Positions 3 through 60,647 of a stretch of DNA of 64,000 nucleotides are shown piece by piece; positions within the stretch are counted from its first letter, which is position 1, and each line of letters starts with the position of its first letter. The notes under the pieces were generated by a model that was given only the letters and a program-made list of their open reading frames with translations, was not told the DNA's origin and ran no database searches. Location of the stretch: contig CAWIYV010000010.1 in the NCBI GenBank assembly GCA_963840455.1, positions 472,348-536,347 on the forward strand, in the 5' to 3' direction. A program made the translations under genes and the position numbers. The stretch comes from Nitrospirota bacterium. GTDB taxonomy: Bacteria > Nitrospirota > UBA9217.

Positions 3-104
3 GCCACATACGCTCAGGGGCTGCTGATCCTTCTGTGGCGGGACCAAAAGCACGAACGCTTGCCGCGTGAGCAGACGTGCAGGGTCGGGAGCAGGAAACG
101 ATGA
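3..104 (+). CDS. 3' end of an upstream gene (partial)
   Basis: Open frame ATYAQGLLILLWRDQ...RKR* ends in an ATGA overlap with the next start at 101. Confidence 0.35.
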   Translation, partial: ATYAQGLLILLWRDQKHERLPREQTCRVGSRKR

Positions 105-1927
105 TATTCATACCCAACGCAGTGACAGACGCACCTCGCACAAAAATAGAGCAACCATCGCAGTGGTCTTATCTCAGAATCCCTTTGCTGTTCCTGATGG
201 CGGTCATCATTGCGTCTTCCGGGGTCTATGTGAACACCCTCCGCAACGGATTCGTGTATGATGACATCCCGCAGATAGTGCAGAACCCTTGGATCCGGGA
301 TGTCCGGTTCCTTCCCGAGATTTTTTCCACCAATGTCTGGGGATTTCAGGGCATAAGCACCAACTACTACCGGCCCTTTTTACACGTCATCTACCTGCTG
401 AGCTACCAGCTTTTTGGCTTGGCACCCTGGGGATTCCATCTCGTCAACATCGTTCTGCACGTAGGCGTGACCTTGCTGGTGTTCCTGCTCTCATCCCGAC
501 TTTTCCAGGCGGCCTCTCCTCGAGCCGCTTCCGCTTCATCGATCTTACCGTTCATCGCGGCAATGCTATTTGCCGTTCACCCCATCCATACCGAGGTCGT
601 TGCTTGGGCAGGAGGGGTCACGGACCTCTCCTTCACCCTGTTCTTCCTTCTCGCCCTTTATCTCTATATCCTCTCCACCGATAGGGGTGTCCATCAGAAG
701 GGCTTCTACCTTCTTTCCGTAGCGTGCTTTTTTTTCGCAACCCTTTGCAAAGAGCCGGCCCTGACCTTCCCGGTCATCCTTGCAGCCTACGACTACGCCT
801 TCAGCAGGGAGACGCTCCGACCCCTTGATTATCTGAAACGATATTCCCCCTATCTGGGAGTTGCAGCCGTCTACTTCATCCTGAGGGTCAACGCCCTCGG
901 CGGTTTTGCGCCGGTCAGCCGCCACAGCGAGTTAAGCGCTTATGAATACCTGATCAATGCTTTGCCTCTTTTCCGGCAGTATCTGGGAAAACTTCTTCTC
1001 CCGACTCATCTCAATGTTTACCATGTTTTTTCACCGATCTCCTCCCTCCTTCAGCCGAACGGTCTGCTTTCCCTGGCCGCCACCGTGGTCTTTGCCATCG
1101 CCGTTCTGCTGGCCTTGAAAAAGAGCAGGCAGGTCTTTTTCGCCCTTGCCCTCGTGCTGGTGCCCTTGCTGCCGGCCCTTTACATTCCGGGGGCCGGCGA
1201 AAACACTTTTGCCGAGCGGTACCTCTATCTTCCGTCCTTCGGCTTCGTACTCTTTATCGCCTTCCTTGCGGATCAGGTGGTGCTCTATATGCCGCGCTGG
1301 TCCGTTCCCTTGGCCGCGGCATTCGCACTCGTCGCCGTTCTCTACGCCTTCGGCACAGTGCAGAGAAACGTTGTCTGGAAAGATGATGAGCGCCTTTGGC
1401 GAGACGTGGTGGAAAAATCGCCTGCCAGCGCCGTTTCCCACTATAACCTTGCCTGTATATTGAGTACCCGAGGTCAGAACGACGAAGCGATAAGGGAGTT
1501 TCGGACCGCGATCCGCCTGCAGCCGGCTGCCACGGCTTACAAGCGCCTTGGTGTGGCCTACCAAGCCAAGGGACTCATCGGCGAGGCTATTGAACAGTAC
1601 CAGCTTGCCATACGGCTGCAACCCGGCGATAGCGATGCCCACGCCTTGCTTGCGGCTGCGTATGCCGATTCAGGATCACTGGACAAGGCGATTGAGCATT
1701 TTCGCATCGTCGTGCAACTACAGCCGGATTCCGCTAATGCCCAGTATGATCTGGGGAGGGCGTACCTCGAAAAGGGGCGACCGGCGGAGGCCATACCTCA
1801 TTTGGAGGCCGCCGTGCTGCTCAATCCTTCTGATCCGTTGTTCCGCAGCACCCTGAACAGGGCGTTATCGATGAAGGCACCTGCCGCGAAGAACGATGGC
1901 AGGACCGGCAGCAGGAGAGATCGGTAG
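101..1927 (+). CDS. TMTC-like GT-C glycosyltransferase with C-terminal TPRs
   Basis: Multi-TM N-terminus with FVYDD, YYRP, HPIHTEVVAW, LCKE and ERYLYLP motifs, then RNVVWKDDERLW and TPR repeats. Confidence 0.85.
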   Translation: MIFIPNAVTDAPRTKIEQPSQWSYLRIPLLFLMAVIIASSGVYVNTLRNGFVYDDIPQIVQNPWIRDVRFLPEIFSTNVWGFQGISTNYYRPFLHVIYLLSYQLFGLAPWGFHLVNIVLHVGVTLLVFLLSSRLFQAASPRAASASSILPFIAAMLFAVHPIHTEVVAWAGGVTDLSFTLFFLLALYLYILSTDRGVHQKGFYLLSVACFFFATLCKEPALTFPVILAAYDYAFSRETLRPLDYLKRYSPYLGVAAVYFILRVNALGGFAPVSRHSELSAYEYLINALPLFRQYLGKLLLPTHLNVYHVFSPISSLLQPNGLLSLAATVVFAIAVLLALKKSRQVFFALALVLVPLLPALYIPGAGENTFAERYLYLPSFGFVLFIAFLADQVVLYMPRWSVPLAAAFALVAVLYAFGTVQRNVVWKDDERLWRDVVEKSPASAVSHYNLACILSTRGQNDEAIREFRTAIRLQPAATAYKRLGVAYQAKGLIGEAIEQYQLAIRLQPGDSDAHALLAAAYADSGSLDKAIEHFRIVVQLQPDSANAQYDLGRAYLEKGRPAEAIPHLEAAVLLNPSDPLFRSTLNRALSMKAPAAKNDGRTGSRRDR

Positions 1928-1972
1928 CGACAACGAAGAGGCCGAGACCGGAAAGGGCGGGCAGACAGTGAG

Positions 1973-3160
1973 ATGTCCTGCCCCGCGAACGCAGAGGCCG
2001 ACCAACGGTTTTCTATGGCAAAGCTCAACCTGAAAGAGTTCGTCGTTTTCATAAAATATTCTGCCGTGGGCGTTACCGGAACGGTGCTGGATGTAGGATC
2101 GCTCTATATTTTTGTCGACCTGTTGCACATCTCTGTTCTCGTTGCCGCAGCGATGTCCTTTACTCTCGCCGTTGTCAACAATTTTATCCTGAATAAGTTC
2201 TGGACGTTCCGGAATGCCGGTCGCAATATAAGAAAACAATTCATTAAGTTCGTCATTGTTTCTGTCGTCGGGCTCGCCCTTACGGAATTCTGCATGGCGG
2301 TCTTTGTGTTCCTTTTGGGCATCTGGTATATTGCGTCAAAACTGATCACGTCGGTCGTCGTGTTGACATGGAATTTTCTTGCGAATAAAAATTGGACATT
2401 CACCGAGACCATCCGCCCTCTTTCAGTGGCCGATCGATATGATTATGACCTTACGATAATTATTCCAGCTTTTAATGAAGAAAAACGCATAGGAAGTACG
2501 CTCGACGTCATTCATAGGTATTTTGACCAGAAAAGCATGACACGGGAGATTATTGTTATCGATGACGGCAGCAATGATGATACGGCCGGAGTCGTGAACG
2601 CAATGAAAAGGCGGATACACGACTTGCGTTGCATCCGCTCTCTTCCCAATCGCGGCAAGGGATATGCGGTCAAGGCCGGCGTGGAACAGAGCAGAGGAGA
2701 ATACGTCCTGTTTACTGACGCGGACAACTCTACGCCGATCGAGGAATTTGAAAAATTTCATCCTATCTTGCCTCACGCAAAAGTTGTTATCGGTTCCCGC
2801 TATATGGCCAAAAGCTCCGTGGTCATCAGACAGCCATACTACCGGATCCTCCTCGGACGACTGGGCAATTTTCTCATCCGGGTCTTTCTCTTCGATGATA
2901 TCAGGGACACCCAATGCGGATTTAAAGCCTTTCAGCACCGTGCGGCCCGGGAGCTGTTCAGCCGCATGAAGGTCAACCGGTTCGGGTTCGATATCGAGCT
3001 GTTGTCCATCGCGCATCTGTTAAAGTATTCCGTACGCGAGGTCCCGGTAAGCTGGTATAATTCACCCCTGAGCAGGGTCAGGCCGATAAAGGACGCTTTG
3101 CGTACGTTTGCTGATCTGATCTACATAAAACTCAATCTTCTGAGCGGACGATATGAATAA
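1973..3160 (+). CDS. GtrA-like flippase domain fused to GT2 polyprenyl-phosphate glycosyltransferase (DPM1/ALG5-like)
   Basis: N-terminal 4-TM GtrA pattern (NFILNKFWTF, NFLANKNWTF); C-terminal IIPAFNEE, IDDGSND, NRGKG, FTDAD, DTQCGFK, FGFDIE. Start may be 2015. Confidence 0.85.
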   Translation: MSCPANAEADQRFSMAKLNLKEFVVFIKYSAVGVTGTVLDVGSLYIFVDLLHISVLVAAAMSFTLAVVNNFILNKFWTFRNAGRNIRKQFIKFVIVSVVGLALTEFCMAVFVFLLGIWYIASKLITSVVVLTWNFLANKNWTFTETIRPLSVADRYDYDLTIIIPAFNEEKRIGSTLDVIHRYFDQKSMTREIIVIDDGSNDDTAGVVNAMKRRIHDLRCIRSLPNRGKGYAVKAGVEQSRGEYVLFTDADNSTPIEEFEKFHPILPHAKVVIGSRYMAKSSVVIRQPYYRILLGRLGNFLIRVFLFDDIRDTQCGFKAFQHRAARELFSRMKVNRFGFDIELLSIAHLLKYSVREVPVSWYNSPLSRVRPIKDALRTFADLIYIKLNLLSGRYE

Positions 3161-3271
3161 GGGCGGTCACCGAGAAAACACGGTATGCCCTCTGGAAGGC
3201 GCCGCCTTTTCTCGAAAGCATTATTCCACGCGCAGGGACCAGAGAATCGTCGGTGCAGCAGAGGAGAAAGC

Positions 3272-4219
3272 ATGATGCATCAGGAAACGGGACAGGAGAC
3301 CGAAGGGCGCCGCATTCTGCCTTTGAGCGTCTTGATCCTGTTGCTGGCGGCTGCATCGTTCGCACGGAACGGCATCTATCACGAGGACCTGCGCTTGTGG
3401 CAGGATGTGGTGGAAAAAAGCCCTGCAAAGGCCCGGCCCCGCTATCAACTGGGTTTCTATTACGATAAGCGGGAACACCACGAAGAGGCAGTACGGGAAT
3501 ATCGGGCAGCGATCCGGCTCGGCCCTCCGGGTCCCGTTGTCGACCGGGCGCATAATAATCTCGGGAACCTTTACGGAAAACAAGGCCGCTTTGAGGAGGC
3601 GATAGAGGAATTTCAGGCAGTCCTCCGGTATGATCCTAGGGATAGTGTCGCCCGTGCAAACCTCGGGATCATCTACGCCAAGCAGGGGAGAGTGAGTGAG
3701 GCTCTCCATGAGTTCCAGACCGCCATTGAGGCCGATCCCGGCAATACCATGGCACATTACAATCTTGGCAATGCATACCAGGAACAGGGAAGGCTCGGAG
3801 AGGCAATCTTGGCATACCAGGCGGCCCTGCGGATGGACCCCGCCCATGCCGACGCGCGTAATAACCTCGGATTGCTGTACGGGGAGCAGGGACGTTTTGC
3901 AGAAGCGATCCAGGAGTTTCAGGAGGCAATAAAAAGCCAGCCCGAGAGTGCAGAGGCATACAACAACCTCGGGATCGTCTTCGCGAAACAGGGCCGATAT
4001 GATGAAGCGATCCGCGCGTTTCAACGGGCTCTCCTGCACGGGCCTGAAAGCGCCGAAGTGCACAAAAACATCGGCATAGCGTACAGCTACCAGGGGCGCC
4101 TCGAAGACGCCATACGGGAATTCCAGACCGCGCTCCGGATCGATCCGGGACATGCCGGCGCCCGCCACCATCTGGAGAGCACGTACAAGAAATTAAGGGA
4201 TAATCGCGGCGTCAAATGA
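3272..4219 (+). CDS. Membrane-anchored TPR protein (TMTC C-terminal half only)
   Basis: GAGGAG RBS before ATG 3272; one hydrophobic helix, RNGIYHEDLRLWQDVVEKSP, then multiple A.NNLG TPRs. Confidence 0.8.
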   Translation: MMHQETGQETEGRRILPLSVLILLLAAASFARNGIYHEDLRLWQDVVEKSPAKARPRYQLGFYYDKREHHEEAVREYRAAIRLGPPGPVVDRAHNNLGNLYGKQGRFEEAIEEFQAVLRYDPRDSVARANLGIIYAKQGRVSEALHEFQTAIEADPGNTMAHYNLGNAYQEQGRLGEAILAYQAALRMDPAHADARNNLGLLYGEQGRFAEAIQEFQEAIKSQPESAEAYNNLGIVFAKQGRYDEAIRAFQRALLHGPESAEVHKNIGIAYSYQGRLEDAIREFQTALRIDPGHAGARHHLESTYKKLRDNRGVK

Positions 4220-4277: not shown

Positions 4278-5372
4278 ATGAATAGACAAATAACAACAGT
4301 CATTGCGTTCTGTCTGCTCTCCTTGTTCTGTGGCACCGGCCATGCAGAAGAATACGTATGGCATTTTGACAAGGGCGCTGATGCGTTGCATTGGAAGGCT
4401 CTCAATGCGGCTCCCGAGAACACGGCCGACGGGTTTTCCCTTGTCCGGCAGGATGACCCGTTCTGGTTCGTTTCACCGCCGAACCTCAATATTTCTCCCG
4501 AGCTTTCGTATGCAGAGTTCAGGCTCAAGACCCCTGAAACCTATCTGCGCGGGTATCTCGTTGTGAAAACACGCGATGCCAGAAGTTGGGAAGAGGAATT
4601 TACCCTGGGTCTGCCCGATACGTACCATGTGTACCGGATCAATATGCAAAAGGGCAACGTGACCGGATCCCCGGTTGACGCGGTCGCATTCTCGTTCGGC
4701 GGCGTTGACCGGGTTTTCCTTGACTACGTCAAGATCTATCAACCATCTTTTCTTCAACTCCTGGGAGTGTATTGGGGAGAGTTCTGGAGCGTACCGTTTA
4801 CAAGTTCGACAACCGTTAATTTCGTCGATACTCCTCTGATAGGCGATTATCCGTTCCTGGCCCCCCTGTATATTCTTCTCCTGGTCATCGTGGTCTGCAT
4901 GGTCGCCCTGCTGAGACCGGTTACCAGGCAGTCCGTCGTGAGATCCCTGCTCCTGTCCTGCATGGCGGCGGGGGCGTTGTTCGCCGTGCGTATGGATTAC
5001 ACCTGGTATATGCAGTGGAGAGCGGACCGGTCATCGCTGGGGCAGAGAAGTCTTGATGAACGGATAGCCCGGGTGGACGGTACAGGAGCGTATACTTTCG
5101 CTCAGGGCTTGAAAAAGGTCATCCCTCCCGGCTCGACCGTAAGGATCTACGCCGGCATTCTTGAGGGTAAGGTGAGATACTACCTCCTGCCTGTAAAAGT
5201 ATCTGCTCGGGCACCGTATATCGCGGTTTTTAAGGACCCCGCTATTTCCCATGACCCAGTCAATAAATTGCTGCAGAGAGATCACGAGATCGTGGCCCGG
5301 AACGTCCAATTGATCATGGCTATTGGAAAAGACGGTTTTCTCTACAAATCCTCCGAGGACGGCCACCCATGA
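4278..5372 (+). CDS. Hypothetical membrane protein (signal peptide, soluble domain, 2 TM, YYLLP motif)
   Basis: 364 aa ORF; C-terminal half resembles 44798-45394; ATGA overlap with next gene. Confidence 0.7.
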   Translation: MNRQITTVIAFCLLSLFCGTGHAEEYVWHFDKGADALHWKALNAAPENTADGFSLVRQDDPFWFVSPPNLNISPELSYAEFRLKTPETYLRGYLVVKTRDARSWEEEFTLGLPDTYHVYRINMQKGNVTGSPVDAVAFSFGGVDRVFLDYVKIYQPSFLQLLGVYWGEFWSVPFTSSTTVNFVDTPLIGDYPFLAPLYILLLVIVVCMVALLRPVTRQSVVRSLLLSCMAAGALFAVRMDYTWYMQWRADRSSLGQRSLDERIARVDGTGAYTFAQGLKKVIPPGSTVRIYAGILEGKVRYYLLPVKVSARAPYIAVFKDPAISHDPVNKLLQRDHEIVARNVQLIMAIGKDGFLYKSSEDGHP

Positions 5373-6809
5373 CGATCATGATGCTCGCATATGCTTTGGC
5401 TGTGCCTTCGGTGTCCGGATTCCTGTTCGTCACCTGGTGCACCCGTTCAGACCTCAAGCAGAGCTTTTTTGAACGGTTCTTTCTCGGCTTTGGCATCGGC
5501 ACAGGGATTATCACGTTCGAGATGTTCCTCCTCGGGCTGTTCAGAATACCGTTGAACACTGGTGGCGATCTCTATCATGCCGATCGCAACAGCGATTCTT
5601 CTTGGGTATCTCCTGTACCGGTCAGGAATACCATGGCGACAGATCTTCAGCCAAGCGGCAGAAGATACTGATGTGTCACCGGTAAAGGCAGCGTATCTCA
5701 AAAGGTTCATTGTCTTTGTCCTCATCGCATGGATCCTTGCAAAGGTCCTGTTTGTCCTGTATGAAGGGTTTTTCCTGCCTGAGCACACATCGGACAGTTG
5801 GGAACACTGGAGTTCAGGCGCTAAATTCATTTTTTATGAAAAAGGTCTTGCACTCGATCCTGCGAACGAGCACTTTTTTGGAGCGGGCTACTTGAAAGTG
5901 CAGCGATATCCGCTGAATGTTCCCCTCATGCAGGTCTGGATCTCTCTCTGCATCGGGGAGGCCCATGAAGTGTACATGAAGGTATGGAATGCCCTGTTTT
6001 TCATCAGCATGGTAGGCCTGCTGTTCTTTGCTCTCCGCAGGAAAACGACGCTCATGACCGCACTCCTTGCCGCCTTTTTCCTCTCGACGGTTCCGCTGCT
6101 CACCTATCATGCGCTTACCGCATATGCGGACCTGCCGTTAAGCGCCTACGCTCTGGGCGCCATGGTCTGTTTCTGGAACGCGATCGAGGCTCTGAAGAGC
6201 GGACGCGCCGGCCATGCCACAGGCCTATTCGTGCTCATGGGTGCCTGTGCGGCGCTGTGCGTGTGGACCAAGATGGAGGGCTTGTTTTTCGCAGCAGCCT
6301 TTTCCGCTTCGTTGGCGCTTTATTATCTGATGAAAAAAATTTCATTCACACAGGTGATGGCCTTTCTCGCCCCTCTCGTTCTCGTCTCCGTTCCGTGGTA
6401 TGTTTTTTTGATGAGCATTGGCGTTCCGATAAGTTATGGCAAGGCGGAGTTGCCGGGAGCAACGATGACCGCGGGAATTCATTTCCAGGTGCTGCCCGTC
6501 ATAGCTGAGCAGATCCTGTTCTCGGCGAATTTCAACCTGATCTTTTTGTTCCTGTTCCTGCTGGTCATCGCTGGATACAGGCGGATCCGGGAGTCCGGCC
6601 TCGGATACCTTTACGCGGTGTTGCTCTCCGTCATGGCGATGTTTCTTGTGATGTATCTGGGCACGGATACGTACCGGTGGGTTATGAACCTGACAGCGGT
6701 CAACCGGAATATCCTGACCTTTATCCCGATGATGTATTATGTGTCGGCATTGACCGCCGGCAGGCTTCTCGAGGGGGATGTGGTCACGGACCGCCGGCCG
6801 CATCGATGA
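5369..6809 (+). CDS. GT-C (PMT/ArnT-like) glycosyltransferase without TPR, split by a 1-nt insertion at ~5561
   Basis: ORFs 5369-5671 and 5562-6809 join (IPLNT/VAISIM) if one G in ACT-G-GTG is removed; colinear with the intact paralog 45391-46776 (DSWEHWSSGAK, YADLPL, TKMEG). Confidence 0.7.
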
Positions 6810-8980
6810 GGTCCCGACAAGGGGGATCCCATGCCATCAAAAATATTCTGATCATGCCACGGAGAGGCCGGACCGGCGATATGCATACCCAACTGCGGAA
6901 CAATGCTCGACAAGCGGATTCTCGATGGCTGCCGTATTTCAAAAGCCCTTTCGTCCACGGCGCCCTGATCATCATCCTCTGCCTTGCCGCCTATTCCAAC
7001 ACCTTTCACGTGCCGTTCCAGTTCGATGACCCGCGCAGCATCAGCGAGGTGCCCTATGTCAGGGACATGCACCAATTTCCGAATCCCATAACGCTGCAGC
7101 GGGCCGTCGGCTTCTTTACGTTTGCCCTGAACTATCGGCTCCATGGTACTGACGTTGTCGGTTACCATATCGTCAACCTCGTTATCCATATCATAAACGC
7201 GTTCCTCGTATACGCATTTATTGTCCTGACCTTCCGGACGCCGGTCCTGCAAAGGTCTACGCTAAAGAAGCATGCGAAGCTCATAGCCCTTTTCAGCGCC
7301 CTTCTCTTTGCGGGTCATCCGATACAGACCCAGGCGGTCACCTATATTGCCCAGCGCTTCGCCTCGCTTGCGACGCTCTTTTTCCTTCTGAGCCTCGTCG
7401 CCTATATCAGGTCGAGGATTCCGGCCGTTGCGAACCCGTCGAACCGTCGGTCCTTCATCTGGTACGGTGTTTCCCTTCTCTCCGCCGTGTTTGCGATGAA
7501 GACCAAGGAGACAGCGTTCACCCTCCCGGTCGTCATCGCCCTGTACGAATTCCTGTTCCTTGAGGGAGCGATCAGAAAGAGGCTCCTGCTGCTGCTGCCC
7601 TTTCTGCTCACGATGACCATCATTCCTCTGAGCCTTCTTGGCACAGCCAAGCCTCTTGGGGACATGCTGGGCGACATTAGCGAGGTGACGAGGCTTCAGA
7701 CGAAGGTATCGAGAGCGGAGTATCTCATTACGGAGTTCACGGTGATCGCAACGTACCTGCGTCTGCTGTTCTTCCCGGTGCACCAGAATCTCGACTATGA
7801 CTACCCGATTTTTGAGTCGTTCTTCACGCCGGAGGTGGTTTTCTCATTCCTTCTCCTGGCGCTGATCCTCGGTACGGGCGTCTATCTCCTGTATCGTGAC
7901 CGGCGTTCACCCGGCACCGGCAAGCTCGCGGCCTTCGGCATTTTCTGGTTCTTCATCACCCTTTCCGTGGAATCGAGCATCATCCCCATTGCCGACGTGA
8001 TCTTTGAGCACCGGCTGTATCTTCCCTCTGTCGGGTTCTTCCTCGCCTGCACGACCGCCGTCTTTTGGGGCGTTGATCGGCTCAAGGCCCGATGGGCGAA
8101 AGCGGAACAAGCGGTAGTGATCGCCCTTGCAGCGGCTGTTCTCGTATTCGCCGGCCTCGCCTATGCGCGGAACATCGTCTGGCAGAGCGAGGAGAGTTTA
8201 TGGGAGGACGTGATCAGGAACAGCCCCATGAAGGCACGGGGGTACAACGGACTTGGTCTGGCCTATTTCAACAGGGGCCGCTATGACAGGGCGATCGAGG
8301 CCTTTGCGAAGGCCATCGCGCTCCATCCTGCCTATGGCGTGGCGTTCAATAACATCGGAAATGCCTTGTATCGTAACGGCCGGTTCGACAGGGCGATCGA
8401 GGCGCAGACAGAGGCGATCGCGCTGGAGCCGAATAATGCGATCTTTCGCGACAACCGGGGGCTGTCCTATTCGGCAATCGGTGCGTACGACCGGGCTATC
8501 GATGATTTTACCAAGGCGATTGCATTGGATCCCTTCTCTGTAAAGTCATACCATAACCTGGGGTTTGTCTATCACAGCAAGGGACTGTATCGCCAGGCGA
8601 TAGAAGAATACACGAGGGCCATCGCATTGGATCCTGGCAACGCTGTTTTTCGCACCAACCGGGGGTCGGCCTATGCGGCAAACGGCGAATATGAAAGGGC
8701 GATCGAGGACCAGACGACGGCGATCGCCCTTGATCCGGATTTTGCTGCTGCATACAATGGGCGGGGAACCGCGTATGGCCTTCAGGGGCGGTACAATGAG
8801 GCTATCGCTGATTTTACGCGGGCAATATCCCTGGACGCCGGCAACGCCCTTTACTACGCCGGCCGCGGTGCCGCCTTTTCACGGGCAGGTCGCCGGGCTG
8901 AAGCGCTGGCAGATTTTAAGCACGCCTGCGATCTGGGAAGCGAGACAGGATGCAAAATGGTGATGCAGCTAAAGCATTAG
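6806..8980 (+). CDS. TMTC-like GT-C glycosyltransferase with TPRs
   Basis: FQFDD, HPIQTQAV, MKTKE, EHRLYLP, RNIVWQSEESLW, TPRs, C-terminal ACDLGSETGC cap. Start could be 6806, 6854 or 6881. Confidence 0.85.
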   Translation: MRSRQGGSHAIKNILIMPRRGRTGDMHTQLRNNARQADSRWLPYFKSPFVHGALIIILCLAAYSNTFHVPFQFDDPRSISEVPYVRDMHQFPNPITLQRAVGFFTFALNYRLHGTDVVGYHIVNLVIHIINAFLVYAFIVLTFRTPVLQRSTLKKHAKLIALFSALLFAGHPIQTQAVTYIAQRFASLATLFFLLSLVAYIRSRIPAVANPSNRRSFIWYGVSLLSAVFAMKTKETAFTLPVVIALYEFLFLEGAIRKRLLLLLPFLLTMTIIPLSLLGTAKPLGDMLGDISEVTRLQTKVSRAEYLITEFTVIATYLRLLFFPVHQNLDYDYPIFESFFTPEVVFSFLLLALILGTGVYLLYRDRRSPGTGKLAAFGIFWFFITLSVESSIIPIADVIFEHRLYLPSVGFFLACTTAVFWGVDRLKARWAKAEQAVVIALAAAVLVFAGLAYARNIVWQSEESLWEDVIRNSPMKARGYNGLGLAYFNRGRYDRAIEAFAKAIALHPAYGVAFNNIGNALYRNGRFDRAIEAQTEAIALEPNNAIFRDNRGLSYSAIGAYDRAIDDFTKAIALDPFSVKSYHNLGFVYHSKGLYRQAIEEYTRAIALDPGNAVFRTNRGSAYAANGEYERAIEDQTTAIALDPDFAAAYNGRGTAYGLQGRYNEAIADFTRAISLDAGNALYYAGRGAAFSRAGRRAEALADFKHACDLGSETGCKMVMQLKH

Positions 8981-9250: not shown

Positions 9251-9335
9251 TTTCCGATAAAGCCAAACCTTTCGTGAGGAGGGGGCGGAAAGCACCGGGT
9301 CTTCAATCAGGAAGATGGCCGGGCCACCGAAGAAA
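9251..9335 (+). ncRNA. GEMM-I riboswitch, G20 (c-di-GMP type)
   Basis: AAAGCCAAACC-GTGA loop-GGGGCGGAAAGC...GGGTCTT...AAGATGGCCGGGCCACCG; G at 9262 precedes P2. Confidence 0.85.
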
Positions 9336-10487: not shown

Positions 10488-10567
10488 CTCCGAAAAGAGT
10501 AAACCCATCGCAAGGTGGGGACACAAAGCCAACGGGTCCCGAAAGCGGGACGGCCGGGCTGCCGGAG
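10488..10567 (+). ncRNA. GEMM-I riboswitch, A20 variant (GEMM-Ib, predicted 3',3'-cGAMP)
   Basis: CTCCGAAAAGAGTAAACCCATC-GCAA-GGTGGGGACACAAAGCC...GGGCTGCCGGAG; A at 10498 precedes the GT/AC base of P2. Confidence 0.85.
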
Positions 10568-11869: not shown

Positions 11870-11904
11870 AGGGAGGATCGGCAGATGCCGGTCCTCCCTT
11901 TTTT
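11870..11904 (+). terminator. Intrinsic terminator after omcS
   Basis: GGGAGGATCGGC-AGAT-GCCGGTCCTCCC-TTTTTT. Confidence 0.85.
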
Positions 11905-11986
11905 ATCATCGAACGTGCATTTTCCCGCTGTTTCTGGTAACATGCTGCCTGAACCATTCCAGCCCGGTCTTGGCTCACCGAGCGGA

Positions 11987-13285: not shown

Positions 13286-13287
13286 CC

Positions 13288-14694: not shown

Positions 14695-14695
14695 C

Positions 14696-44797: not shown

Positions 44798-45394
44798 ATG
44801 ATGGATTCTTTCATCGCAGACCTACTCAAGGTTGAGCCAATGCACGGAGGCAGCGTGAATGGCTGGATACAAATCCCGACGTCATTTGTCATCGTGATGT
44901 ATTTTGTAATCGTAATAATTACGATGGTGAGTACTGTATATTATCTCAGGAAGAAAATCCCACTCGTTGAAGCTTTAAGAAAGGCTATTTCCCTTGTCTT
45001 TTTTTGCGCAGGATTCCTGTATTTGGTTCATTCGGAAAGGACATGGTACTCATGGTTCAGCGAAGATGTTGCAACCTATTCCGGATCCTCCACAGGCGAG
45101 AAGGTAAGGATATTTTTGGGACCCTTATACGAATTTGTCGCGGTGGCCAGCACTGTGCTGAACGACAGCGATTACACTCTGTATGCTTCCGACACCGCTA
45201 CTAGTCTAATGGCCCAATACTATCTGCTCCCCCGACGGCACAGGGCTAACGCAAAAATAATCATCGTTTTATACAATGATAATACTGCCTATGACGAATT
45301 GACAAGAACATTCAATAGGGGCGATGAACGGATTGAAAACGTTGAGCTGCTCTTTCGCTATGATCCCGGTGCATATATTGTGAGGGTAAGATGA
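44798..45394 (+). CDS. Hypothetical 2-TM protein with YYLLP motif
   Basis: Resembles the C-terminal half of 4278-5372; ATGA overlap with the downstream GT-C. Confidence 0.7.
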   Translation: MMDSFIADLLKVEPMHGGSVNGWIQIPTSFVIVMYFVIVIITMVSTVYYLRKKIPLVEALRKAISLVFFCAGFLYLVHSERTWYSWFSEDVATYSGSSTGEKVRIFLGPLYEFVAVASTVLNDSDYTLYASDTATSLMAQYYLLPRRHRANAKIIIVLYNDNTAYDELTRTFNRGDERIENVELLFRYDPGAYIVRVR

Positions 45395-49176: not shown

Positions 49177-49374
49177 CACAAGCTCTAGCGGAGGATGCTA
49201 ATTCATTATTGCGCTCATCACAGTGATGGGAGCCAAGAACATTTTGATATGAAGTGATGATATACTTCGCTCGGATCGGGATAACACGTGTTTTGATTTC
49301 TCGATTCTTTCGATAGATCGCTAACTGCGGATACGCGAATACCTGGTTTCTGGCCGTGCAGCGTGGAGGTCGTG

Positions 49375-51414: not shown

Positions 51415-51514
51415 TGTTGCGCCTCACGGTTTGAGAGCCGACCACGCAGCCAGCGGCATACCGCATAGAGAAACAAAATGTTCCCCGCTCGCCTTGAGTT
51501 TCTGGAGGTTGCAG

Positions 51515-53544: not shown

Positions 53545-53652
53545 CCCGATAAAGCCAAACCCTTCGTGAGAGGGGGGCGGAAAGCGGCGGGTCTTGAAGT
53601 GAAGATGGCCGAGCTGCCGAAGGTTGAGCCTTTGGTATGCTCGGCTTTTTTA
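53545..53652 (+). ncRNA. GEMM-I riboswitch (G20) with overlapping terminator
   Basis: AAAGCCAAACCCTTC-GTGA-GAGGGGGGCGGAAAGC...GCCGAGCTGCCG, then TGGTATGCTCGGCTTTTTT. Confidence 0.87.
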
Positions 53653-53707
53653 TTCTTCAAGTCTAGGGAATTCGGCTGTAAACATCGAGGTTTACAGGAG
53701 AGTACAT

Positions 53708-54670
53708 ATGCGAGCGCGATTCCATATATATTTTCTTTTGCTTCTCATAACGATTTTCACCTTCACGACGACCTTTGCATTGCCCGCATTGGCAGGGGCC
53801 ATCGAGGCAAACTTCCTGTATACGCTGTCCGATTTCACCGGCCCCTTTTTGATCCATGGGGGGAGGATGTTCGTTGACAAGGACCGGAACGAGACCTACG
53901 TCGTGTATCAGAATGTCGTCAGAGTGTTCAATGAAAACGGGCTGGAGATCTATCGGTTCAATGAAGAAAACAACCTCGGCAGGATCACCGCCTTAGCAGT
54001 GGACCGGGACGGCGCCATCTTCTTCCTTTCCTATGATGATAGAGGAGTGTATGGAATCATCCGCTGCAATTACCGGGGAACGCCGACGGGGAGGATCGAG
54101 ATCACCGGCCTCCTGTCCGATTTTTCCAACGCTGAGAAGTTTTCGCCAACCCAGATGGTATACCAGGGAGGACAGTTCTATCTTGCGGACACAAGCAGCC
54201 TGAGGATCGCGGTCGCCGGTATGACCGGCCAGGTGAAGAAGACCTATGACATTATCCCTCTCCTTGAGCTCAAGGAAAAGGGCCGGGCCGATCTCGAGAT
54301 GGGCGGCTTCAGCGTGGACAAAGAGGGCAATATGCTGTTCACCATACCGGTCCTGTTCAGTGCTACCGTGCTCTCTCCGGAGGGGAAGGTAGCGAACTTC
54401 GGCGAGCCGGGGAGCGTCCCGGGGAAATTTGGGGTTGTGTCGGACATCATAATGGATAATGAGGGGAACTATCTGGTGTCGGACAAGTTGAAATGCGTCG
54501 TCAGCGTGTATGACAAGGGCTTTCGGTTTCTCAAGGAATTCGGCGGCCGCGGGAACGAGCCGAGCAATTTGACCATGCCCCAGAAGCTGGCCGTGGACGG
54601 CAGCAACAAGCTGTATGTCACCCAGGGCGGGAACCGGGGGATCAGCGTTTTCAGGTTGATTTACAACTGA
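53708..54670 (+). CDS. NHL-repeat protein, near-identical duplicate of 9383-10345
   Basis: Mature region almost identical; different signal peptide; AGGAG RBS. Confidence 0.88.
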   Translation: MRARFHIYFLLLLITIFTFTTTFALPALAGAIEANFLYTLSDFTGPFLIHGGRMFVDKDRNETYVVYQNVVRVFNENGLEIYRFNEENNLGRITALAVDRDGAIFFLSYDDRGVYGIIRCNYRGTPTGRIEITGLLSDFSNAEKFSPTQMVYQGGQFYLADTSSLRIAVAGMTGQVKKTYDIIPLLELKEKGRADLEMGGFSVDKEGNMLFTIPVLFSATVLSPEGKVANFGEPGSVPGKFGVVSDIIMDNEGNYLVSDKLKCVVSVYDKGFRFLKEFGGRGNEPSNLTMPQKLAVDGSNKLYVTQGGNRGISVFRLIYN

Positions 54671-54787
54671 AGACAGCAGTCCACATAAAAGGAGGTGAAT
54701 GCCGTCAGAGAATAAAAAAAGGGGGACGGCAACAAGCAGTGAGCAGGGGCATTCCGACCATGCATGTCGGATTAACCAACATTGATC

Positions 54788-54866
54788 CTCCGAAAGAGTA
54801 AACTCATCGCAAGGTGGGGACACAAAGCCAGCGGGTCCCGGAAGCGGGACGGCCAGGCTGCCGGAG
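54788..54866 (+). ncRNA. GEMM-I riboswitch, A20 variant (predicted cGAMP)
   Basis: CTCCGAAAGAGTAAACTCATC-GCAA-GGTGGGGACACAAAGCC...GGCTGCCGGAG; A at 54797. Confidence 0.85.
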
Positions 54867-54887
54867 AATATGAAGGAGGGGGGTTAT

Positions 54888-56144
54888 ATGAAGCTCGCTA
54901 AATTAAGCCTTATCCTTGTCGCTGCAGCCGCGGTAGTGTTCGGGCTGAGCGGGACCGGTTTCTCCTTCCATGACGGCGGCGTCGCTGATTGTGTGGGCTG
55001 CCACCAAATGCACAACGCACCAGGCGCCAACCTTCTTATCGCCGCTGACCAGAGCTCGGTCTGTCTGAGCTGCCATGGCACATCAGGCCAGTCCAGCTAC
55101 CATGTTCTTACCCCCGATACAGACATGCCCGCGGGTACGCCGCCAGTCAATGAAGGCCCCGGCGGTGACTTCGGCTGGCTGCACAAGACCTATATTTTCA
55201 CGATTGCAGGATCGCTAGTCTCCACCGATAACGGCCAGACCCATGGCCATAACATCATTGCTGCAGGTTACACCGGCGGCGTTTACACTGTTGATCCCGA
55301 CAACCCAACGGCCCCGGGCGGCACGTTCTCGTCAGCGCTGCTTGCCTGCACCAGCTGCCATGACCAACATGGTAAAGGCCGTTGGACGACAGCAGGCACC
55401 TATAGCAAGACCTCCGGCGCTATCTATACCTCCGGTTCGTATGGTTCCATACCGACAGTTTTCTCCGCCACTGGCGAAAACTTGTCGACGGGCGTATACC
55501 GTCTGCTCCGTGCTGCCGACAGTGTTGGCGGCGTGACCTTCCCCGCCCTCCCGCCGGTTGCGGTAGCTCCGAGCACCTACAACAGGTCAGAGTTCTTCTT
55601 CCAGACCCGCACTGCCTACGGCTCCGGCATGTCCGACTTCTGCGGCACCTGTCATCCTGACATGCACACCACGGCAGGCATCAACCGTCACCCGACGAAC
55701 CAGGTCATGAGCGGCACGGTCCAGGGCATCTACAACAGCTATGTGAAAACAGGTGCTATGACCGGCAGCCCGACCACCTCGTACCTGTCGCTCGTTCCGT
55801 TCGAAGAAGGCCAGACCTACAGCGCGGCCGCCATCAACACCCTGAAGAGCCATGCCCAGATCGACGATTCCAATCTAAACGGCCCGGGCTCTGGTACCGT
55901 GCCTGCAACGGCGACCATAATGTGCCTCTCCTGCCACCGGGCTCATGCATCTGGCTGGGCTACCATGTTTAGATGGAACAAGGATGTTACGACCATCACC
56001 GTCGCTGGCGCCTATCCTACTGGTAATGACGCGGGCTGGGGTCGATCCTTAGCGGAGGTATCAAAAGCCTACTATGACAAGAACGTAACGAAGTTCGCCG
56101 CTTTCCAGCGCACGCTCTGCAACAAGTGTCATGGTCTAGACTAA
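54888..56144 (+). CDS. omcS: OmcS-like hexaheme cytochrome, copy 3
   Basis: FHDGGVADCVGCHQMH, 6 CxxCH, LCNKCHGLD. Confidence 0.92.
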   Translation: MKLAKLSLILVAAAAVVFGLSGTGFSFHDGGVADCVGCHQMHNAPGANLLIAADQSSVCLSCHGTSGQSSYHVLTPDTDMPAGTPPVNEGPGGDFGWLHKTYIFTIAGSLVSTDNGQTHGHNIIAAGYTGGVYTVDPDNPTAPGGTFSSALLACTSCHDQHGKGRWTTAGTYSKTSGAIYTSGSYGSIPTVFSATGENLSTGVYRLLRAADSVGGVTFPALPPVAVAPSTYNRSEFFFQTRTAYGSGMSDFCGTCHPDMHTTAGINRHPTNQVMSGTVQGIYNSYVKTGAMTGSPTTSYLSLVPFEEGQTYSAAAINTLKSHAQIDDSNLNGPGSGTVPATATIMCLSCHRAHASGWATMFRWNKDVTTITVAGAYPTGNDAGWGRSLAEVSKAYYDKNVTKFAAFQRTLCNKCHGLD

Positions 56145-56200: not shown

Positions 56201-57088
56201 GTTATCTCTCCAATGAGAGCGGGATATGATGCCAAGGTACGAATTGTTTGAATGTAAATCAAAAACCGTGTACAATCACACAAAGCGCCTCCTGGGTTTA
56301 AGATTGGCGTTTTTGCCCAAGAGCATATCAGAGTCTAGCCGCTCTGGTATGCTTGGGAAGTGCCCTTTATATGATTATCAAGTCAGGTAAGCCGAAAGAC
56401 GAACTGAAGCAGTTGACGTTGTTCTGAAAGATACCCTGCAGCAAAATGCGGGGAGCTTCATTGCAGACACTTTTCTTAGCCTTTCCAAAAAAAACCTATT
56501 GTCCTAATATCAGGGTGTAACTCCTCGGATACAAAAGGAGGCAAAAGGCCATCCGTATCAGTATACGTGCGTTGAAACTGCGAAGGATCGCGGCATAATC
56601 GGAACCATGCAAACCATTGGGTATAAAACCCCGGCGGTGTTTCTTTACGGAAAAGGCTTGACAATGCTAGATGCAACCTGATAAGTATACGCAACAATAG
56701 GTTCCCGAAACCTCCTGCGTGTGCAGCTCATGTTTTACGATTTACAGCGGTCCTAATGATTTTATCGCTTGCCGTGTGAGTTGATGATTCTCTTAATATA
56801 AACTATCGCCGAGCAAGTCATGTCCAAGTTGCAGGAACGTCTCAGCCTGACAGGAGAGCAATGTCAGCGATCCTCGAATAAAGCTTCCAGAAAGACCCCG
56901 GATTTTCTAAACGCTGATCAGGTCTTGATGGGTCTCCACTTGCGGGAACCCCAGTTATCACCGATATTCATCCTCGCAAGATTCATACTGAGGAACGGAT
57001 GAGGGGGAATGAGAAGCCCGGGAAAGGACAGGGTGTGAAGATGGAGCGCGATGAGAGGCAATGCTGCAAGGACCCCCTACCACATAAA

Positions 57089-58585
57089 ATGAACATTACA
57101 TCACGCTATATTTACGTTCTCGCCTTTTTTTCCGGCATGTGCATCATGGCCGTTGAACTTTGCGCATCTCGTCTCATGGCTCCGTTTTTCGGGACCTCCA
57201 CCTTTGTCTGGACAAACATCATCGGCATTATTATGATTGCACTGTCGGCCGGTTACATTGCTGGGGGGAAGCTCGCCGACCGGAAGCCGCGGCTCGACAT
57301 CCTCCTGAAGCTCCTCCTGGCCGCCTGCGCCTTCCTTCTCGTGCTTCCTTTTGTGGCGTCACCCATTGCCAGGTGGCTCGCGTCGCTCATGGCGAACTTC
57401 AATTCGTCCTTTTCGTTCATATTTTTCGGATCGCTCTCTGCCATAACACTTCTGTTCTCCCCGCCTATCGTTATCATGGGCATGACGAGTCCGTTCCTCA
57501 TACGGATCATTGCTCAGAGTGGCCACGAGGGTGACGCTGCCGGGCGCATTTTCGGGATCTCCACCATCGGAAGCGTCGTAGGCACCTTTCTGCCTATCCT
57601 GGTCTTCATCCCGACGTGGGGCACGGGCAAGACAATAATGTTTTTTGCGGCAGTGCTATTCGTCGTCACCGCATTGGGCTTTGCCAGCAAGAGAAACGCG
57701 CTTCTTTCAGTCGCCGCGGCCGTGCCGTTCCTCTTCCCAATACCGTCCGTGCGGGAGACCACCGGAAAGATATACTCGACAGAGTCGGCGTATCAGTATA
57801 TCGAGGTCTTTGACAGAGGATCTTTCCGCTACCTTGTGTACAATGATGCGGCAGGTTTCCAAACGGTTGCCAATAAGAAGAGCGTCCTTACGGGACTTAA
57901 CTACTACTACGACTTTTATTCGCTTCTTCCGTTCCTCTTTCGAGATGCCCCCAAAAGCGCACTTATTATCGGCCTCGGCGGGGGGATCATAGCGAACCAG
58001 CTCCACTACTTTCACCCGAAAATCGATATTGACGGCGTGGAAATAGACCCAAAGGTGATACAGATTGCGCGGAACTACTTCGCACTAAGCGACGCTGTGA
58101 AGACATACAATCAGGACGGGCGCATCTTCGTCAGCCTGGGAGAAAGGAAGCATGACATCGTTATCATCGACGCCTACACACAACAGGTCTATATCCCTTT
58201 TCACCTTACGACGATGGAGTTCTTCAGCCAGGTGAAGAAGGGACTTTCAGACAATGGAATTGTCGCCATGAACGTTTCCTCGGCACGAGAGGACTCACCG
58301 CTCATTCAGAGCATCAGCAACACGCTCCGACTCGTGTTCGGTCACGTATACCGGCTTAGAATCCCCGGTTCTGTTGATAACGTCGTCCTCGCCTCTGACA
58401 GGAGCGTAGACTTAGCGTTGTTCACAGCGGCGGGCGGAACAGAACTTCAGGGTATTGCTCAGTACAGCCAGGTGAACTTCAGGGAGAGTATATACGACAA
58501 CAGGTACAAGCCCCTCACTGACGACCTGGCTCCCATAGAGCACATGGTGGATTGGGAGATACTCAAACGGGGAATCACGAGATGA
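57089..58585 (+). CDS. Fused membrane domain / spermidine synthase-like SAM-dependent transferase
   Basis: SGMCIMAVELCASRLMAPFFG, ESAYQYI, LIIGLGGG, VEIDP, DGR, IIDAY, LTDDLAPIE. Confidence 0.85.
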   Translation: MNITSRYIYVLAFFSGMCIMAVELCASRLMAPFFGTSTFVWTNIIGIIMIALSAGYIAGGKLADRKPRLDILLKLLLAACAFLLVLPFVASPIARWLASLMANFNSSFSFIFFGSLSAITLLFSPPIVIMGMTSPFLIRIIAQSGHEGDAAGRIFGISTIGSVVGTFLPILVFIPTWGTGKTIMFFAAVLFVVTALGFASKRNALLSVAAAVPFLFPIPSVRETTGKIYSTESAYQYIEVFDRGSFRYLVYNDAAGFQTVANKKSVLTGLNYYYDFYSLLPFLFRDAPKSALIIGLGGGIIANQLHYFHPKIDIDGVEIDPKVIQIARNYFALSDAVKTYNQDGRIFVSLGERKHDIVIIDAYTQQVYIPFHLTTMEFFSQVKKGLSDNGIVAMNVSSAREDSPLIQSISNTLRLVFGHVYRLRIPGSVDNVVLASDRSVDLALFTAAGGTELQGIAQYSQVNFRESIYDNRYKPLTDDLAPIEHMVDWEILKRGITR

Positions 58586-58982
58586 GGCTATTGCGAGACG
58601 GAACACTGGCCCATTGCCACTTGCGTCAATGCTCCCACCGCTATTTTCTTATAATAATATTCTTTCTGCTTGCCCAGGCTCAGATCGTGTCTGCCGGTGT
58701 ATGATTATTATTATGGGTAAAGTGACAGTTTAGCCACTGACTTTTTAACGCATTCTGACATTTTAGTTAAGAAAGGATTCGCGAGTTCAATCTCGATGTA
58801 CAATGCTTAAAACAGCGAGCTTCAACGGTGTTGTCTGGCCGAGGCACTTTCTTGGGCGGCTATCAAGGGTACATTCTATCTAATCTGTCGTTAGATTGCA
58901 GCAATCTGCGAAGGTATTATCCATTGAAAGATGCATAAAGATTTCAGCCTCACTACTTATAGTATCCCAAAATTAGGTGAAA

Positions 58983-60647
58983 TTACGGAAGAATATTGCG
59001 TTGAATTTCCTTGCCCATGGCACGAGAACGCGCTTCTGCTCTCTTCTTGAACGACTGCTCTCGCAACAGGTCCTGTACCTTCTTGTCGTCAGGCTCGACC
59101 TGAAGAACCTTCTGATACTCCGCCATCGCCTCCTCGTGCCTGCCCATCTCATCCAGTACTTTGGCGAAGACCAAGCGACGGGAAGTATTGCCAGGCTCGA
59201 TGCGGAGAGATTCACGGTAATAGCGGACGGCCTCCTGCCGGTCCCCCTTCCGGTAATATGCGACGCCGAGATTGAAATAGGGGTCAGCATATGCAGGATT
59301 CCGGCGGATGGACTGCATCAGATGAGGGATCGCCTCGTCGAACCTTCCCTTCGTACCGAGCAGGGCCCCGAGTGTGTTCTGGGCGATCCAGTTGTCCTCA
59401 TCGACATCCACTGCATGACGATAAAGGGTCAAGTCATTCTTCCAGTATCCCAGCTGTATCCAGGTTAACGATGCAAGCAGCAGGAGAATCGTCGTTGAAC
59501 AAATGGGCAGTACCCACTTCGGGAGGGCCAATCTCCGGACCAGATCGCCTATTCCCCAGGAAACCGCGATGAAAATCCCGATAAGGGGCACGTAGGTATA
59601 TCGGTCGGCCATGGCCTGCGCCCCGACTTGCACGAGCCCGATCACCGGTACCAGGGTTCCGAGATACCAGAACCATCCAAAGGCCAAGTACGGGAACCTT
59701 CTCGCGAAATAGGTGACCAGAATCGTCAAGCAAGCCAGCAGTGCGATTACGAGGGTGATCTCCCAGAAGGGAATGAGATAGCCGCGATGGGGGTAGTAGA
59801 CGGACAGTCCCGACGGCCAGAACGTCTTGCCCAGATAGGCCACATAGCTGCTGAGGGCGTTCGTCAGGCGAGCCTGGAAGGTGATCGGCTGGATAAACGC
59901 TTTCTGGGCGATAACGGTGATCACGGAAGAACCTGCTGTCAAGACCAGGAAAGGGATTTTCTCCAGCAGCAGACGAGGAAGCCTCGCCGCGGTTAATCTC
60001 AACGGAGAGGACTGCTCCCATTCGTCAACACGGAGACGCCCGAGGGGCCACCAATCGATGAGAAGGAGGACAAAAGGCAGGGTCACCGCCATTGGTTTTG
60101 CCATCAGTGCACAGGCAAAGAACATCAGCGCCATGGCGTACCACCGGGCGGTAGAACGCTCCGCGAATCTGACATACGCCCAGAGCGTCAAGAGCGAGAA
60201 GAAGGTGCAGAGCACATCCTTTCGTTCAGAAGCCCAGGCGACCGACTCGACGTGAAGGGGATGGACGAGGAATAGCGCCGCCACAAACGCACTTCGCAGT
60301 GACTTACCCGTCATGATCCAGAGCAAGAAGAACAGGATCACGCTGTTTAGGGTGTGGAAAAGGGCACTCACGATGTGATGCCCCCCGGGCGAGAGGCCGA
60401 AGATCTGGATGTCCAGCATGTGCGACAGCCACGTTATCGGATGCCAGTTCTGCTCGTAGGTGGATGTGAATGCCCAGACGATCCCCTGCGTCATAAGGCC
60501 TTCCCGGATAAAGGAGTTCTCGGTGATGTACGCAGGATCGTCAAGGCTGATGAAGGAATTGGTCGAGGTTTGCGAGAAGAGAATGAGGCCCGCGACGGCT
60601 AGCGCCACAACGATCATATAATTATTGATGAGAAATTCTTTTTTCAT
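58983..60647 (-). CDS. TMTC-like GT-C glycosyltransferase with TPRs
   Basis: ISLDDPAY, NWHPITW, HPLHVESVAWASERKD, AKPMAV, ADRYTYVP, TPRs. Confidence 0.88.
   Translation of the reverse strand: MKKEFLINNYMIVVALAVAGLILFSQTSTNSFISLDDPAYITENSFIREGLMTQGIVWAFTSTYEQNWHPITWLSHMLDIQIFGLSPGGHHIVSALFHTLNSVILFFLLWIMTGKSLRSAFVAALFLVHPLHVESVAWASERKDVLCTFFSLLTLWAYVRFAERSTARWYAMALMFFACALMAKPMAVTLPFVLLLIDWWPLGRLRVDEWEQSSPLRLTAARLPRLLLEKIPFLVLTAGSSVITVIAQKAFIQPITFQARLTNALSSYVAYLGKTFWPSGLSVYYPHRGYLIPFWEITLVIALLACLTILVTYFARRFPYLAFGWFWYLGTLVPVIGLVQVGAQAMADRYTYVPLIGIFIAVSWGIGDLVRRLALPKWVLPICSTTILLLLASLTWIQLGYWKNDLTLYRHAVDVDEDNWIAQNTLGALLGTKGRFDEAIPHLMQSIRRNPAYADPYFNLGVAYYRKGDRQEAVRYYRESLRIEPGNTSRRLVFAKVLDEMGRHEEAMAEYQKVLQVEPDDKKVQDLLREQSFKKRAEARSRAMGKEIQRNILP

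Follow-up and report, generated by a model that had tools for sequence, protein, structure and literature searches.

Which process do membrane glycosyltransferases serve when their genes are interleaved with those of a cytochrome nanowire? This question is raised by a 64,000-nt stretch of DNA (hereafter, the window), which corresponds to positions 472348-536347 of contig CAWIYV010000010.1 (contig C10) of an uncultured Nitrospirota bacterium whose genome comprises 4.03 Mb in 14 contigs. Nearly all sizeable genes of the window are located on the forward strand. Within 10 kb of its omcS genes, which encode OmcS-family cytochromes, we found seven genes for GT-C glycosyltransferases with TPR repeats (T1-T7), one or two genes for PMT_2-like GT-C proteins (S1 and S2), and a gene encoding a GtrA-like domain fused to a GT2 domain that resembles dolichol monophosphate mannose synthase (DPMS). 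An earlier reading, made from the sequence only, had proposed that these genes form a dedicated system for the glycosylation of a nanowire or adhesin. Our own view, to which we give an even chance of being right, is that the window contains an osc-type OmcS nanowire cluster flanked by a periplasmic protein O-glycosylation system that serves it.

The first line of evidence is the physical linkage between the two gene families, which is real and recurs across phyla. A hidden Markov model search of the source genome with the N-terminal domain (N-domain) of the GT-C/TPR proteins returned 11 TMTC-like loci: seven in the window, one situated 4.6 kb from a fifth omcS gene on contig C11, and two divergent and one split locus on contig C7, where one of the divergent genes adjoins UbiA and GT4 genes. 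Eight of these 11 loci fall inside the 82 kb (2.0% of the genome) that is no farther than 10 kb from an omcS gene, a territory in which about 0.22 loci would be expected (binomial 5e-12). The sequence-only reading placed such clusters near every omcS module, and this was borne out genome-wide, because each of the five full-length omcS genes (four in the window, the fifth on C11) has a TMTC-like gene within 5 kb, at distances of 1.4-4.6 kb. Beyond the source genome, we analyzed 72 omcS loci taken from the full set of GTDB species, with flanks of at most 10 kb, many of them short; TMTC-like genes, one or more per locus, are present in the flanks of 16. For the 49 other omcS genomes for which genome-wide TMTC-like totals were available, the omcS flanks contained 28 TMTC-like copies where 1.53 were expected (an 18-fold excess) and 14 loci had a copy where 1.5 were expected, a number reached in none of 200,000 simulations; these linkage statistics, like the binomial figure above, are inflated by kin genomes and tandem arrays. 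The linked loci belong to Nitrospirota, Geobacteraceae (Geomonas and Citrifermentans), other Thermodesulfobacteriota or "delta" metagenome-assembled genomes (MAGs), and one Acidobacteriota. Among 41 genomes of relatives, the TMTC-like family was present in 30 and omcS in 10, nine of which also had the family, and in three relatives (G002, G022 and G024) a TMTC-like gene and omcS are located side by side on one contig.

The second line of evidence is provided by gene order and phylogeny. The cluster of Geomonas silvestris (locus L030) begins with a TMTC-like gene, a gene for a 990-amino-acid (aa) Spermine_synth-domain protein, a second TMTC-like gene, a propeller gene and two OmcS-like genes, and continues with genes for a YNCE propeller, a 762-aa protein, a GNA1162-like lipoprotein, a 388-aa protein, a peptidyl-prolyl isomerase (PPIase) and a 26-haem cytochrome. 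Except for the Calx-beta gene, it is colinear with the window between positions 6806 and 31386, and at least eight of the 12 TMTC-like copies of this organism are no more than 30 kb away from omcS. Geomonas limicola (locus L033) is another cultured carrier of the colinear cluster. In a tree of 87 N-domains, from which two duplicate rows had been dropped, T1 falls in a starred clade that also holds genes linked to omcS from Nitrospiraceae Ngb-4 and Geomonas. The starred clade of T2 contains eight rows, of which three are within 10 kb of omcS, one is at 10-50 kb and four are far from it, and the omcS-linked genes include those of Ngb-4, a Geobacterales MAG and Geomonas. In the starred clade of T3, five of the six rows are omcS-linked. 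Thus, T1, T2 and T3 each belong to a cross-phylum clade whose members are largely linked to omcS. The clade of T4-T6 consists mostly of Nitrospirota rows and includes copies from a relative (G016) that yielded no omcS. T1-like genes (at least 48% identity) are present in five of the 41 relatives, four of these with omcS, and T2-like genes (at least 50% identity) in nine, six of these with omcS. The T2 orthologue of G024 is 85% identical and lies 2.5 kb before omcS, and the T1-T2-omcS spacing in that genome matches that of the window.

What kind of enzymes are encoded by these genes? All seven full GT-C/TPR genes named in the sequence-only reading were located, and each encodes some 8-10 hydrophobic segments followed by Pfam TPR repeats. 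The claim that all of them keep a DD motif after the first transmembrane (TM) segment also stood: in the alignment of the seven N-domains (A1, about 420 columns) the residues D36 and D37, found 5-10 residues past TM1, are invariant, as they are in all 35 rows of a wider alignment of relatives (A3). Further invariant positions in A1 are K214, R373 and Y376. These can be compared with the motifs M1-M7 that Eisenhaber et al. tabulated for TMTC proteins (Table 4 of PMC7801869). All seven proteins retain most of the donor-binding motifs, and the invariant DD corresponds to motif M1. Motif M3 takes the form RKD in five of the seven window proteins, and the relatives in A3 keep it almost without exception. 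The lysine of motif M4 is invariant, with a full KETxxT in T2 and KE..LT in T1, these two being the only paralogues that retain its glutamate. Motif M7 has the form (E/D)RYxY with invariant R and Y, and motif M2 is partial, N(W/Y)(H/Y)(R)P, and missing from T2. A database search yielded at least 7939 relatives of the N-domain, many of which are named "protein O-mannosyl-transferase" by JGI. When the N-domains were compared with Pfam, T7 alone matched PMT_2, and a profile of the seven returned no match among PDB sequences at E-values up to 10.

The fold was assessed with T4, the sole paralogue for which there is an AlphaFold model (pLDDT 87.2, pTM 0.86). Residues 1-460 of this model align to seven GT-C enzymes over 313-349 residues with Z scores of 16.0-19.0: AglB (3waj, Z 19.0, 327 aa), Pmt1/2 (6p2r, 18.4, 349 aa), STT3 (6s7t, 17.8), ALG12 (9s6t, 17.5), Pmt4 (9e61, 16.9), PglB (5ogl, 16.0) and ArnT (5f15, 16.0, 330 aa). 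In this structure comparison, of the kind that the sequence-only reading had proposed, the predicted TM domain of T4 fits Pmt1/2, Pmt4 and other GT-C folds. The C-terminal part of the model aligns to OGT-type TPR domains. A single-protein PDB search and Foldseek with the full T4 model retrieved TPR proteins only, and the GT-C matches came from a wide search with VIA-align. Based on the TMTC motifs and the GT-C fold of the T4 model, T1-T7 are assigned as bacterial TMTC-type GT-C enzymes, and not as strict members of the eukaryotic TMTC family. Like TMTC1-4, the ER protein O-mannosyltransferases of cadherins (GT-C/PMT clan), they combine a GT-C domain of many TM segments at the N-terminus (about 11 segments in TMTC1-4) with TPR repeats that form an arm beyond the membrane, and they likewise have the DD in the first loop, the KExxT-type lysine, RxD and ERxxY. 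They differ from them in that the M4 glutamate is limited to T1 and T2, and in that they are bacterial proteins present as 7-11 paralogues in the window and source genome.

A possible source of the sugar donor is the GtrA-GT2 fusion, for which both Pfam domains were matched. Its best PDB match is 5mlz, the dolichol monophosphate mannose synthase of P. furiosus (E 3.1e-23), ahead of GtrB (5ekp, 1.2e-6) and ArnC (3e-6). On this ranking, the protein is likely a polyprenyl-phosphate hexose synthase, which agrees with the earlier proposal that GT2 makes a polyprenyl-phosphate sugar. Its domain order is permuted, the TM domain coming first, and all NCBIfam equivalog matches are below their cut-offs. 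The two GT-C proteins without TPR that had been reported are not equally secure. S2 is the better supported of the two: its PMT_2 score is borderline (26.0 bits, gathering cut-off 26.1), and many of its 109 homologues carry PF13231, some being named ArnT-like by JGI. S1 is a lead, since its PMT_2 match (E 4e-3, 17.7 bits) is below the cut-off and PMT_2 occurs in 17-30% of the members of its Atlas neighbours. Alignment of A1 with S1 and S2 by hhalign revealed no relation. A separate TPR-less gene of the TMTC-like family, encoding some 400-450 aa with 38-43% identity to T2, is present once in each of 16 of the searched relatives that belong to the same taxonomic family, and the split copy of the source genome (contig C7, 67973-69197, two open reading frames) may be its counterpart.

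The other half of our interpretation concerns the nanowire genes, for which protein families were assigned by Pfam and NCBIfam scans and riboswitches by Rfam. The four OmcS-family genes of the sequence-only reading are indeed four homologues with six CxxCH motifs each, and the omcS copies are 83-85% identical. The PDB match to 6ef8 listed for the first of them in Table 1, obtained with the reading frame 10453-11847, is to OmcS of G. sulfurreducens. An OmcS-like fragment of 106 aa is located far from the other copies (contig C11, 613445-613765, reverse strand). According to the description of the G. sulfurreducens osc operon (Shen et al. 2025, as cited in PMC13194489), this operon has roles in folding, secretion and morphology and comprises OmcS and OmcS-like paralogues together with propellers, proteins for secretion, a PPIase and multihaem cytochromes of the periplasm; no glycosyltransferase is listed in that account. 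The window contains a six-haem OmcS, propellers, a large 766-aa protein that had no family match in the Pfam and NCBIfam scans, a lipoprotein, a PPIase and multihaem cytochromes. This osc-like block (9350-34379) has the gene order of the Geomonas cluster for as far as locus L030 extends.

Six aptamers of the GEMM-I class are present on the forward strand, five of them c-di-GMP-I-GGC (RF03167) and one RF01051, each ahead of a propeller or omcS gene (Table 1). The tandem pair ahead of omcS3 (37858-37942 and 38064-38148) is borne by a 206-nt direct repeat at 37848-38224, which consists of 126-nt copies that are 90% identical and a 49-nt family. Since an aptamer occupies 10489-10567, the open reading frame start of omcS1 at 10453 is spurious and 10594 is its likely start. 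Contigs of a soil metatranscriptome (X20) contain pieces at least 90% alike to the 53.5-56.15 kb region (propeller and omcS4) and next to none alike to T4-T6, but contigs cannot rank genes and the organism may be absent from that sample, so that we draw no inference. Calx-beta is a beta-sandwich repeat. The Calx-beta domains that had been reported are present, though not in a single intact reading frame: two overlapping frames (1464 and 1930 aa) make sense as a single lipoprotein gene of some 3300 aa in which the frame shifts near 21750-21790, either because the gene is truly broken or because the repeats were misassembled.

Table 1. Features of the window (positions of the 64,000-nt stretch).
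Position	Strand	Feature	Evidence
101..1927	+	T1, TMTC-type GT-C + TPR, about 608 aa from ATG 101	Pfam TPR; motifs DD, NYYRP, KE..LT, AERYLY
1973..3160	+	GtrA-like TM domain fused to GT2	Pfam GtrA_DPMS_TM 1.3e-25, Glycos_transf_2 3.3e-26
3185..4219	+	TPR-only protein, one hydrophobic segment	Pfam
4278..5372	+	364-aa protein, signal-peptide-like N-terminus	without Pfam or NCBIfam match
5562..6809	+	S1, possible PMT_2-like GT-C without TPR (weak)	Pfam PMT_2 below cut-off
6806..8980	+	T2, TMTC-type GT-C + TPR; ATG overlaps S1 stop	TPR; exact KETAFT motif
9253..9332	+	c-di-GMP-I-GGC aptamer ahead of beta-propeller gene	Rfam RF03167, 60.8 bits
9350..10345	+	beta-propeller (SGL/NHL-like)	Pfam, NCBIfam
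10489..10567	+	c-di-GMP-I-GGC aptamer ahead of omcS1	RF03167, 59.9 bits
10594..11847	+	OmcS paralogue 1, six haems	PDB 6ef8 OmcS E 1.7e-93; six CxxCH
11885..13285	+	OmcS paralogue 2 (OmcT-like position)	six CxxCH
13261..17578	+	osc-like core: YNCE-type beta-propeller, 766-aa S/T-rich protein (14696-16996), GNA1162/LpoB-like lipoprotein	Pfam; Geomonas colinearity
17547..27489	+	Calx-beta lipoprotein, about 25 domains, two open reading frames	Pfam Calx-beta, 10 + 15 stretches
27561..34379	+	PPIase, 26-haem and 16-haem cytochromes, NHL propeller, TPR protein	Pfam
34963..36888	+	T3, TMTC-type GT-C + TPR	TPR, motifs
37858..38148	+	two tandem c-di-GMP-I-GGC aptamers within 206-nt direct repeat	Rfam
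38298..39566	+	OmcS paralogue 3	six CxxCH
45391..46776	+	S2, PMT_2/ArnT-like GT-C without TPR	PMT_2 E 1.2e-5
47371..53218	+	T4, T5, T6, tandem TMTC-type GT-C + TPR, mutual identity 57-59%	TPR, motifs, T4 model
53545..54865	+	riboswitch 53545-53622, beta-propeller 53624-54670, riboswitch 54787-54865	Rfam, Pfam
54870..56144	+	OmcS paralogue 4	six CxxCH
56999..58585	+	fused MFS/spermidine-synthase-like membrane protein	NCBIfam NF037959, 7e-60
58983..60647	-	T7, TMTC-type GT-C + TPR	Pfam PMT_2 6.2e-8

A few further genes complete the picture of the window. Two paralogous small lipoproteins, encoded at 39793-40371 and 43872-44414 (55% identical, E 4e-70), flank the gene of a PDZ protein, and neither matched any Pfam or NCBIfam family. 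A small membrane protein is encoded between these lipoprotein/PDZ genes on the omcS3 side and S2, and T7 is followed by genes for a histidine kinase and then a response regulator. A spermidine-synthase-related gene stands among the TMTC-like genes in both organisms compared, as the MFS fusion in the window and as the 990-aa Spermine_synth-domain protein (L030, 1268-4240) in Geomonas silvestris.

How could these components act together? In the scheme that we propose, the GT2 domain would use a nucleotide sugar to charge polyprenyl phosphate with a hexose on the cytoplasmic side of the membrane, and the lipid-linked sugar would then be flipped, possibly aided by the fused GtrA-like domain. Each GT-C enzyme would move the sugar to Ser/Thr residues of exported proteins that its TPR arm holds in the periplasm; the transfer would rely on the DD loop that follows TM1 together with the conserved Lys and Arg, which are donor-phosphate binders in TMTC models. 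The likeliest candidate acceptors are OmcS-family subunits before they reach the Osc secretion machinery; further candidates are perhaps the Calx-beta lipoprotein or the propellers. The paralogues form old, distinct lineages (T1, T2, T3, T7 and T4-T6), which may serve different sites, sugars or acceptors. A more far-reaching version, which we put forward tentatively and regard as rather doubtful, is that a set of at least four TMTC-type lineages, co-inherited across phyla, constitutes the missing machinery for the surface sugars of OmcS, with the TPR arms choosing the site or the sugar.

Several findings weigh against the view that this glycosylation system serves the OmcS nanowire. Firstly, three TMTC-like loci of the source genome lie away from omcS, and unrelated housekeeping genes separate the fifth omcS gene from its TMTC-like neighbour. 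Secondly, the TMTC-like family is present in 21 of the 31 relatives in which no omcS was found, for which reason the system cannot be called dedicated, as the sequence-only reading had it; in addition, 56 of the 72 omcS loci have no TMTC-like copy in their flanks, many of which are short, and the inflation of the linkage statistics mentioned above must be taken into account. Accordingly, the comparison of TMTC-like density near omcS and elsewhere has two sides: the genes are enriched near omcS here and in other genomes, but the family is also common without omcS. Thirdly, the aptamers lie downstream of T2, T3 and T6 and separate the TMTC-like genes from the omcS or propeller genes that follow, which implies that the TMTC-like genes form transcription units separate from those of omcS. 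Fourthly, the TMTC resemblance is incomplete. The Pfam family DUF1736, which covers the TMTC signature loop between TM7 and TM8, had no match in the seven N-domains at E-values up to 10, in a search in which the HMMER filters drop most matches above E of about 0.1, and motif M5 (DW) was not identified in the seven aligned N-domains, a DW of T4 (residues 228-229) not being in the M5 position because it lies 14 residues past the M4 lysine. Finally, Ser/Thr richness had been taken as an argument for glycosylation. The figures themselves are correct: serine plus threonine make up 18-20% of the OmcS copies, 22% of the 766-aa protein and 18-19% of the Calx-beta protein, compared with a crude genome-wide open reading frame mean of 9.7% (95th percentile, 15.8%). 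As an argument they do not discriminate, since the fraction is 0.184 in OmcS homologues with a TMTC-like neighbour (n=26) versus 0.187 in those without (n=74; p=0.75). Ser/Thr richness is thus a trait of the whole OmcS family that does not track TMTC-like neighbours.

Another counterpoint comes from G001, a genome of the same genus that yielded no omcS and contains nine tandem TMTC-like genes (C23, 58000-86987; L076/L077). This array is preceded by genes for UbiA, a GMC oxidoreductase, an epimerase, GT9 and two radical SAM/SPASM proteins, and we take the UbiA, GMC oxidoreductase and epimerase set to be reminiscent of a decaprenyl-phosphate-arabinose-type donor route.

There are three alternatives to our view, of which the first is unlikely, if the least unlikely of the three. 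According to this explanation, T1-T7 are protein O-glycosyltransferases of a general cell-surface glycosylation locus that tends to lie beside surface-structure genes; they would act on other exported proteins (the Calx-beta lipoprotein, the propellers or the porin-like protein) or on a wide range of periplasmic ones, and OmcS would be left unmodified. The wide distribution of the family (at least 7939 matches, 30 of 41 relatives, and arrays where no omcS was found) and the position of the TMTC-like genes outside the riboswitch control of omcS fit this explanation, as does the fact that the known targets of eukaryotic TMTCs are beta-sandwich cadherin domains (PMC7801869). On the other hand, the colinear Geomonas cluster has TMTC-like genes yet no Calx-beta gene, and it is omcS/osc that constitutes the common denominator of the linked loci, both of which weigh against this explanation.

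A second alternative is that the acceptor of the GT-C/TPR proteins is not a protein. They would instead build or modify the material that surrounds the nanowires, for instance a glycan of the periplasm or cell surface, lipid A or an exopolysaccharide matrix, in analogy with ArnT or the Emb-type arabinosyltransferases. The GT-C fold is indeed in common with ArnT (Z 16.0), S1 and S2 of the window are PMT_2/ArnT-like, the arrays of relatives adjoin genes resembling those of the decaprenyl-phosphate-arabinose donor route and GT9, and the pilin-modifying enzyme TfpW is thought to polymerise sugar as well (10.1101/2020.04.19.049825). However, no polymerase or export genes of the Wzx/Wzy/Wza type are found among the Pfam matches of the window, and TMTC motifs combined with a TPR arm typify protein-modifying members, so that we regard this possibility as improbable. 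Slightly less probable still is that there is no functional coupling at all and that TMTC-like and omcS genes are both expanded, mobile paralogue families in one variable island, because, although the island does contain duplicated modules (the omcS copies, the paired lipoproteins and the 206-nt repeat) and housekeeping genes do intervene at the fifth omcS, the 18-fold excess extends over 49 genomes of several phyla, gene order is conserved with Geomonas, and the orthologous T1, T2 and T3 lineages stay linked to omcS.

The association of an OmcS cluster with a protein O-glycosylation system can be compared with systems that are already in print. The OmcS and OmcE filaments of G. sulfurreducens have been described as surface-glycosylated (PMC9473688). 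Moreover, omcE clusters of Geobacter and Geomonas are followed by 15-70 genes that include GT2, GT4 and GT39 glycosyltransferases, TPR proteins and regulators, and the authors tied these adjoining clusters to OmcE glycosylation (mBio 2026, PMC13712944; preprint 10.1101/2025.10.22.684050). The likeness to the window consists in nanowire genes adjoined by glycosyltransferase, TPR and regulator genes. The published description differs in that it deals with OmcE, mentions no TMTC-type enzyme and argues from correlation, whereas the window concerns OmcS/osc in Nitrospirota and its GT-C genes are interleaved with the omcS modules. A second system is TfpW of P. aeruginosa group IV, a 646-aa GT-C protein that has a DDX motif, 11 TM segments by prediction and a C-terminal TPR region in the periplasm; it is encoded beside pilA, is needed for pilin arabinosylation and has ArnT as its closest modelling template (10.1101/2020.04.19.049825). 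Judging from this description, the window proteins share with TfpW both the combination of GT-C with a periplasmic TPR region and a gene position beside that of a filament subunit. They differ in that TfpW acts on a type IV pilin with decaprenyl-phosphate-D-Araf as donor, while the neighbour in the window is a cytochrome filament and the candidate donor gene is DPMS-like.

In our literature search, no paper connected TMTC-type enzymes with OmcS, none named an enzyme that glycosylates OmcS or OmcE filaments, and no study of bacterial TMTC-like proteins came up. The statement in the sequence-only reading that it knew of no description of such a pathway is therefore in line with our search as regards OmcS and TMTC-like enzymes, but it is only partly right in general, given the published accounts of the omcE glycosylation clusters (PMC13712944) and of TfpW. 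Thus, the idea of filament glycosylation is already in print for OmcE.

Surface sugars are expected to affect the insulation and bundling of the filaments and their contact with minerals. If the more far-reaching version given above is correct, the cell could tune the insulation, bundling and adhesion of its nanowires, and a function would be assigned for the first time to the very large bacterial TMTC-like family. The island described here and its colinear counterpart in cultured Geomonas name concrete genes with which both filament glycosylation and the function of TMTC-like proteins can be tested.

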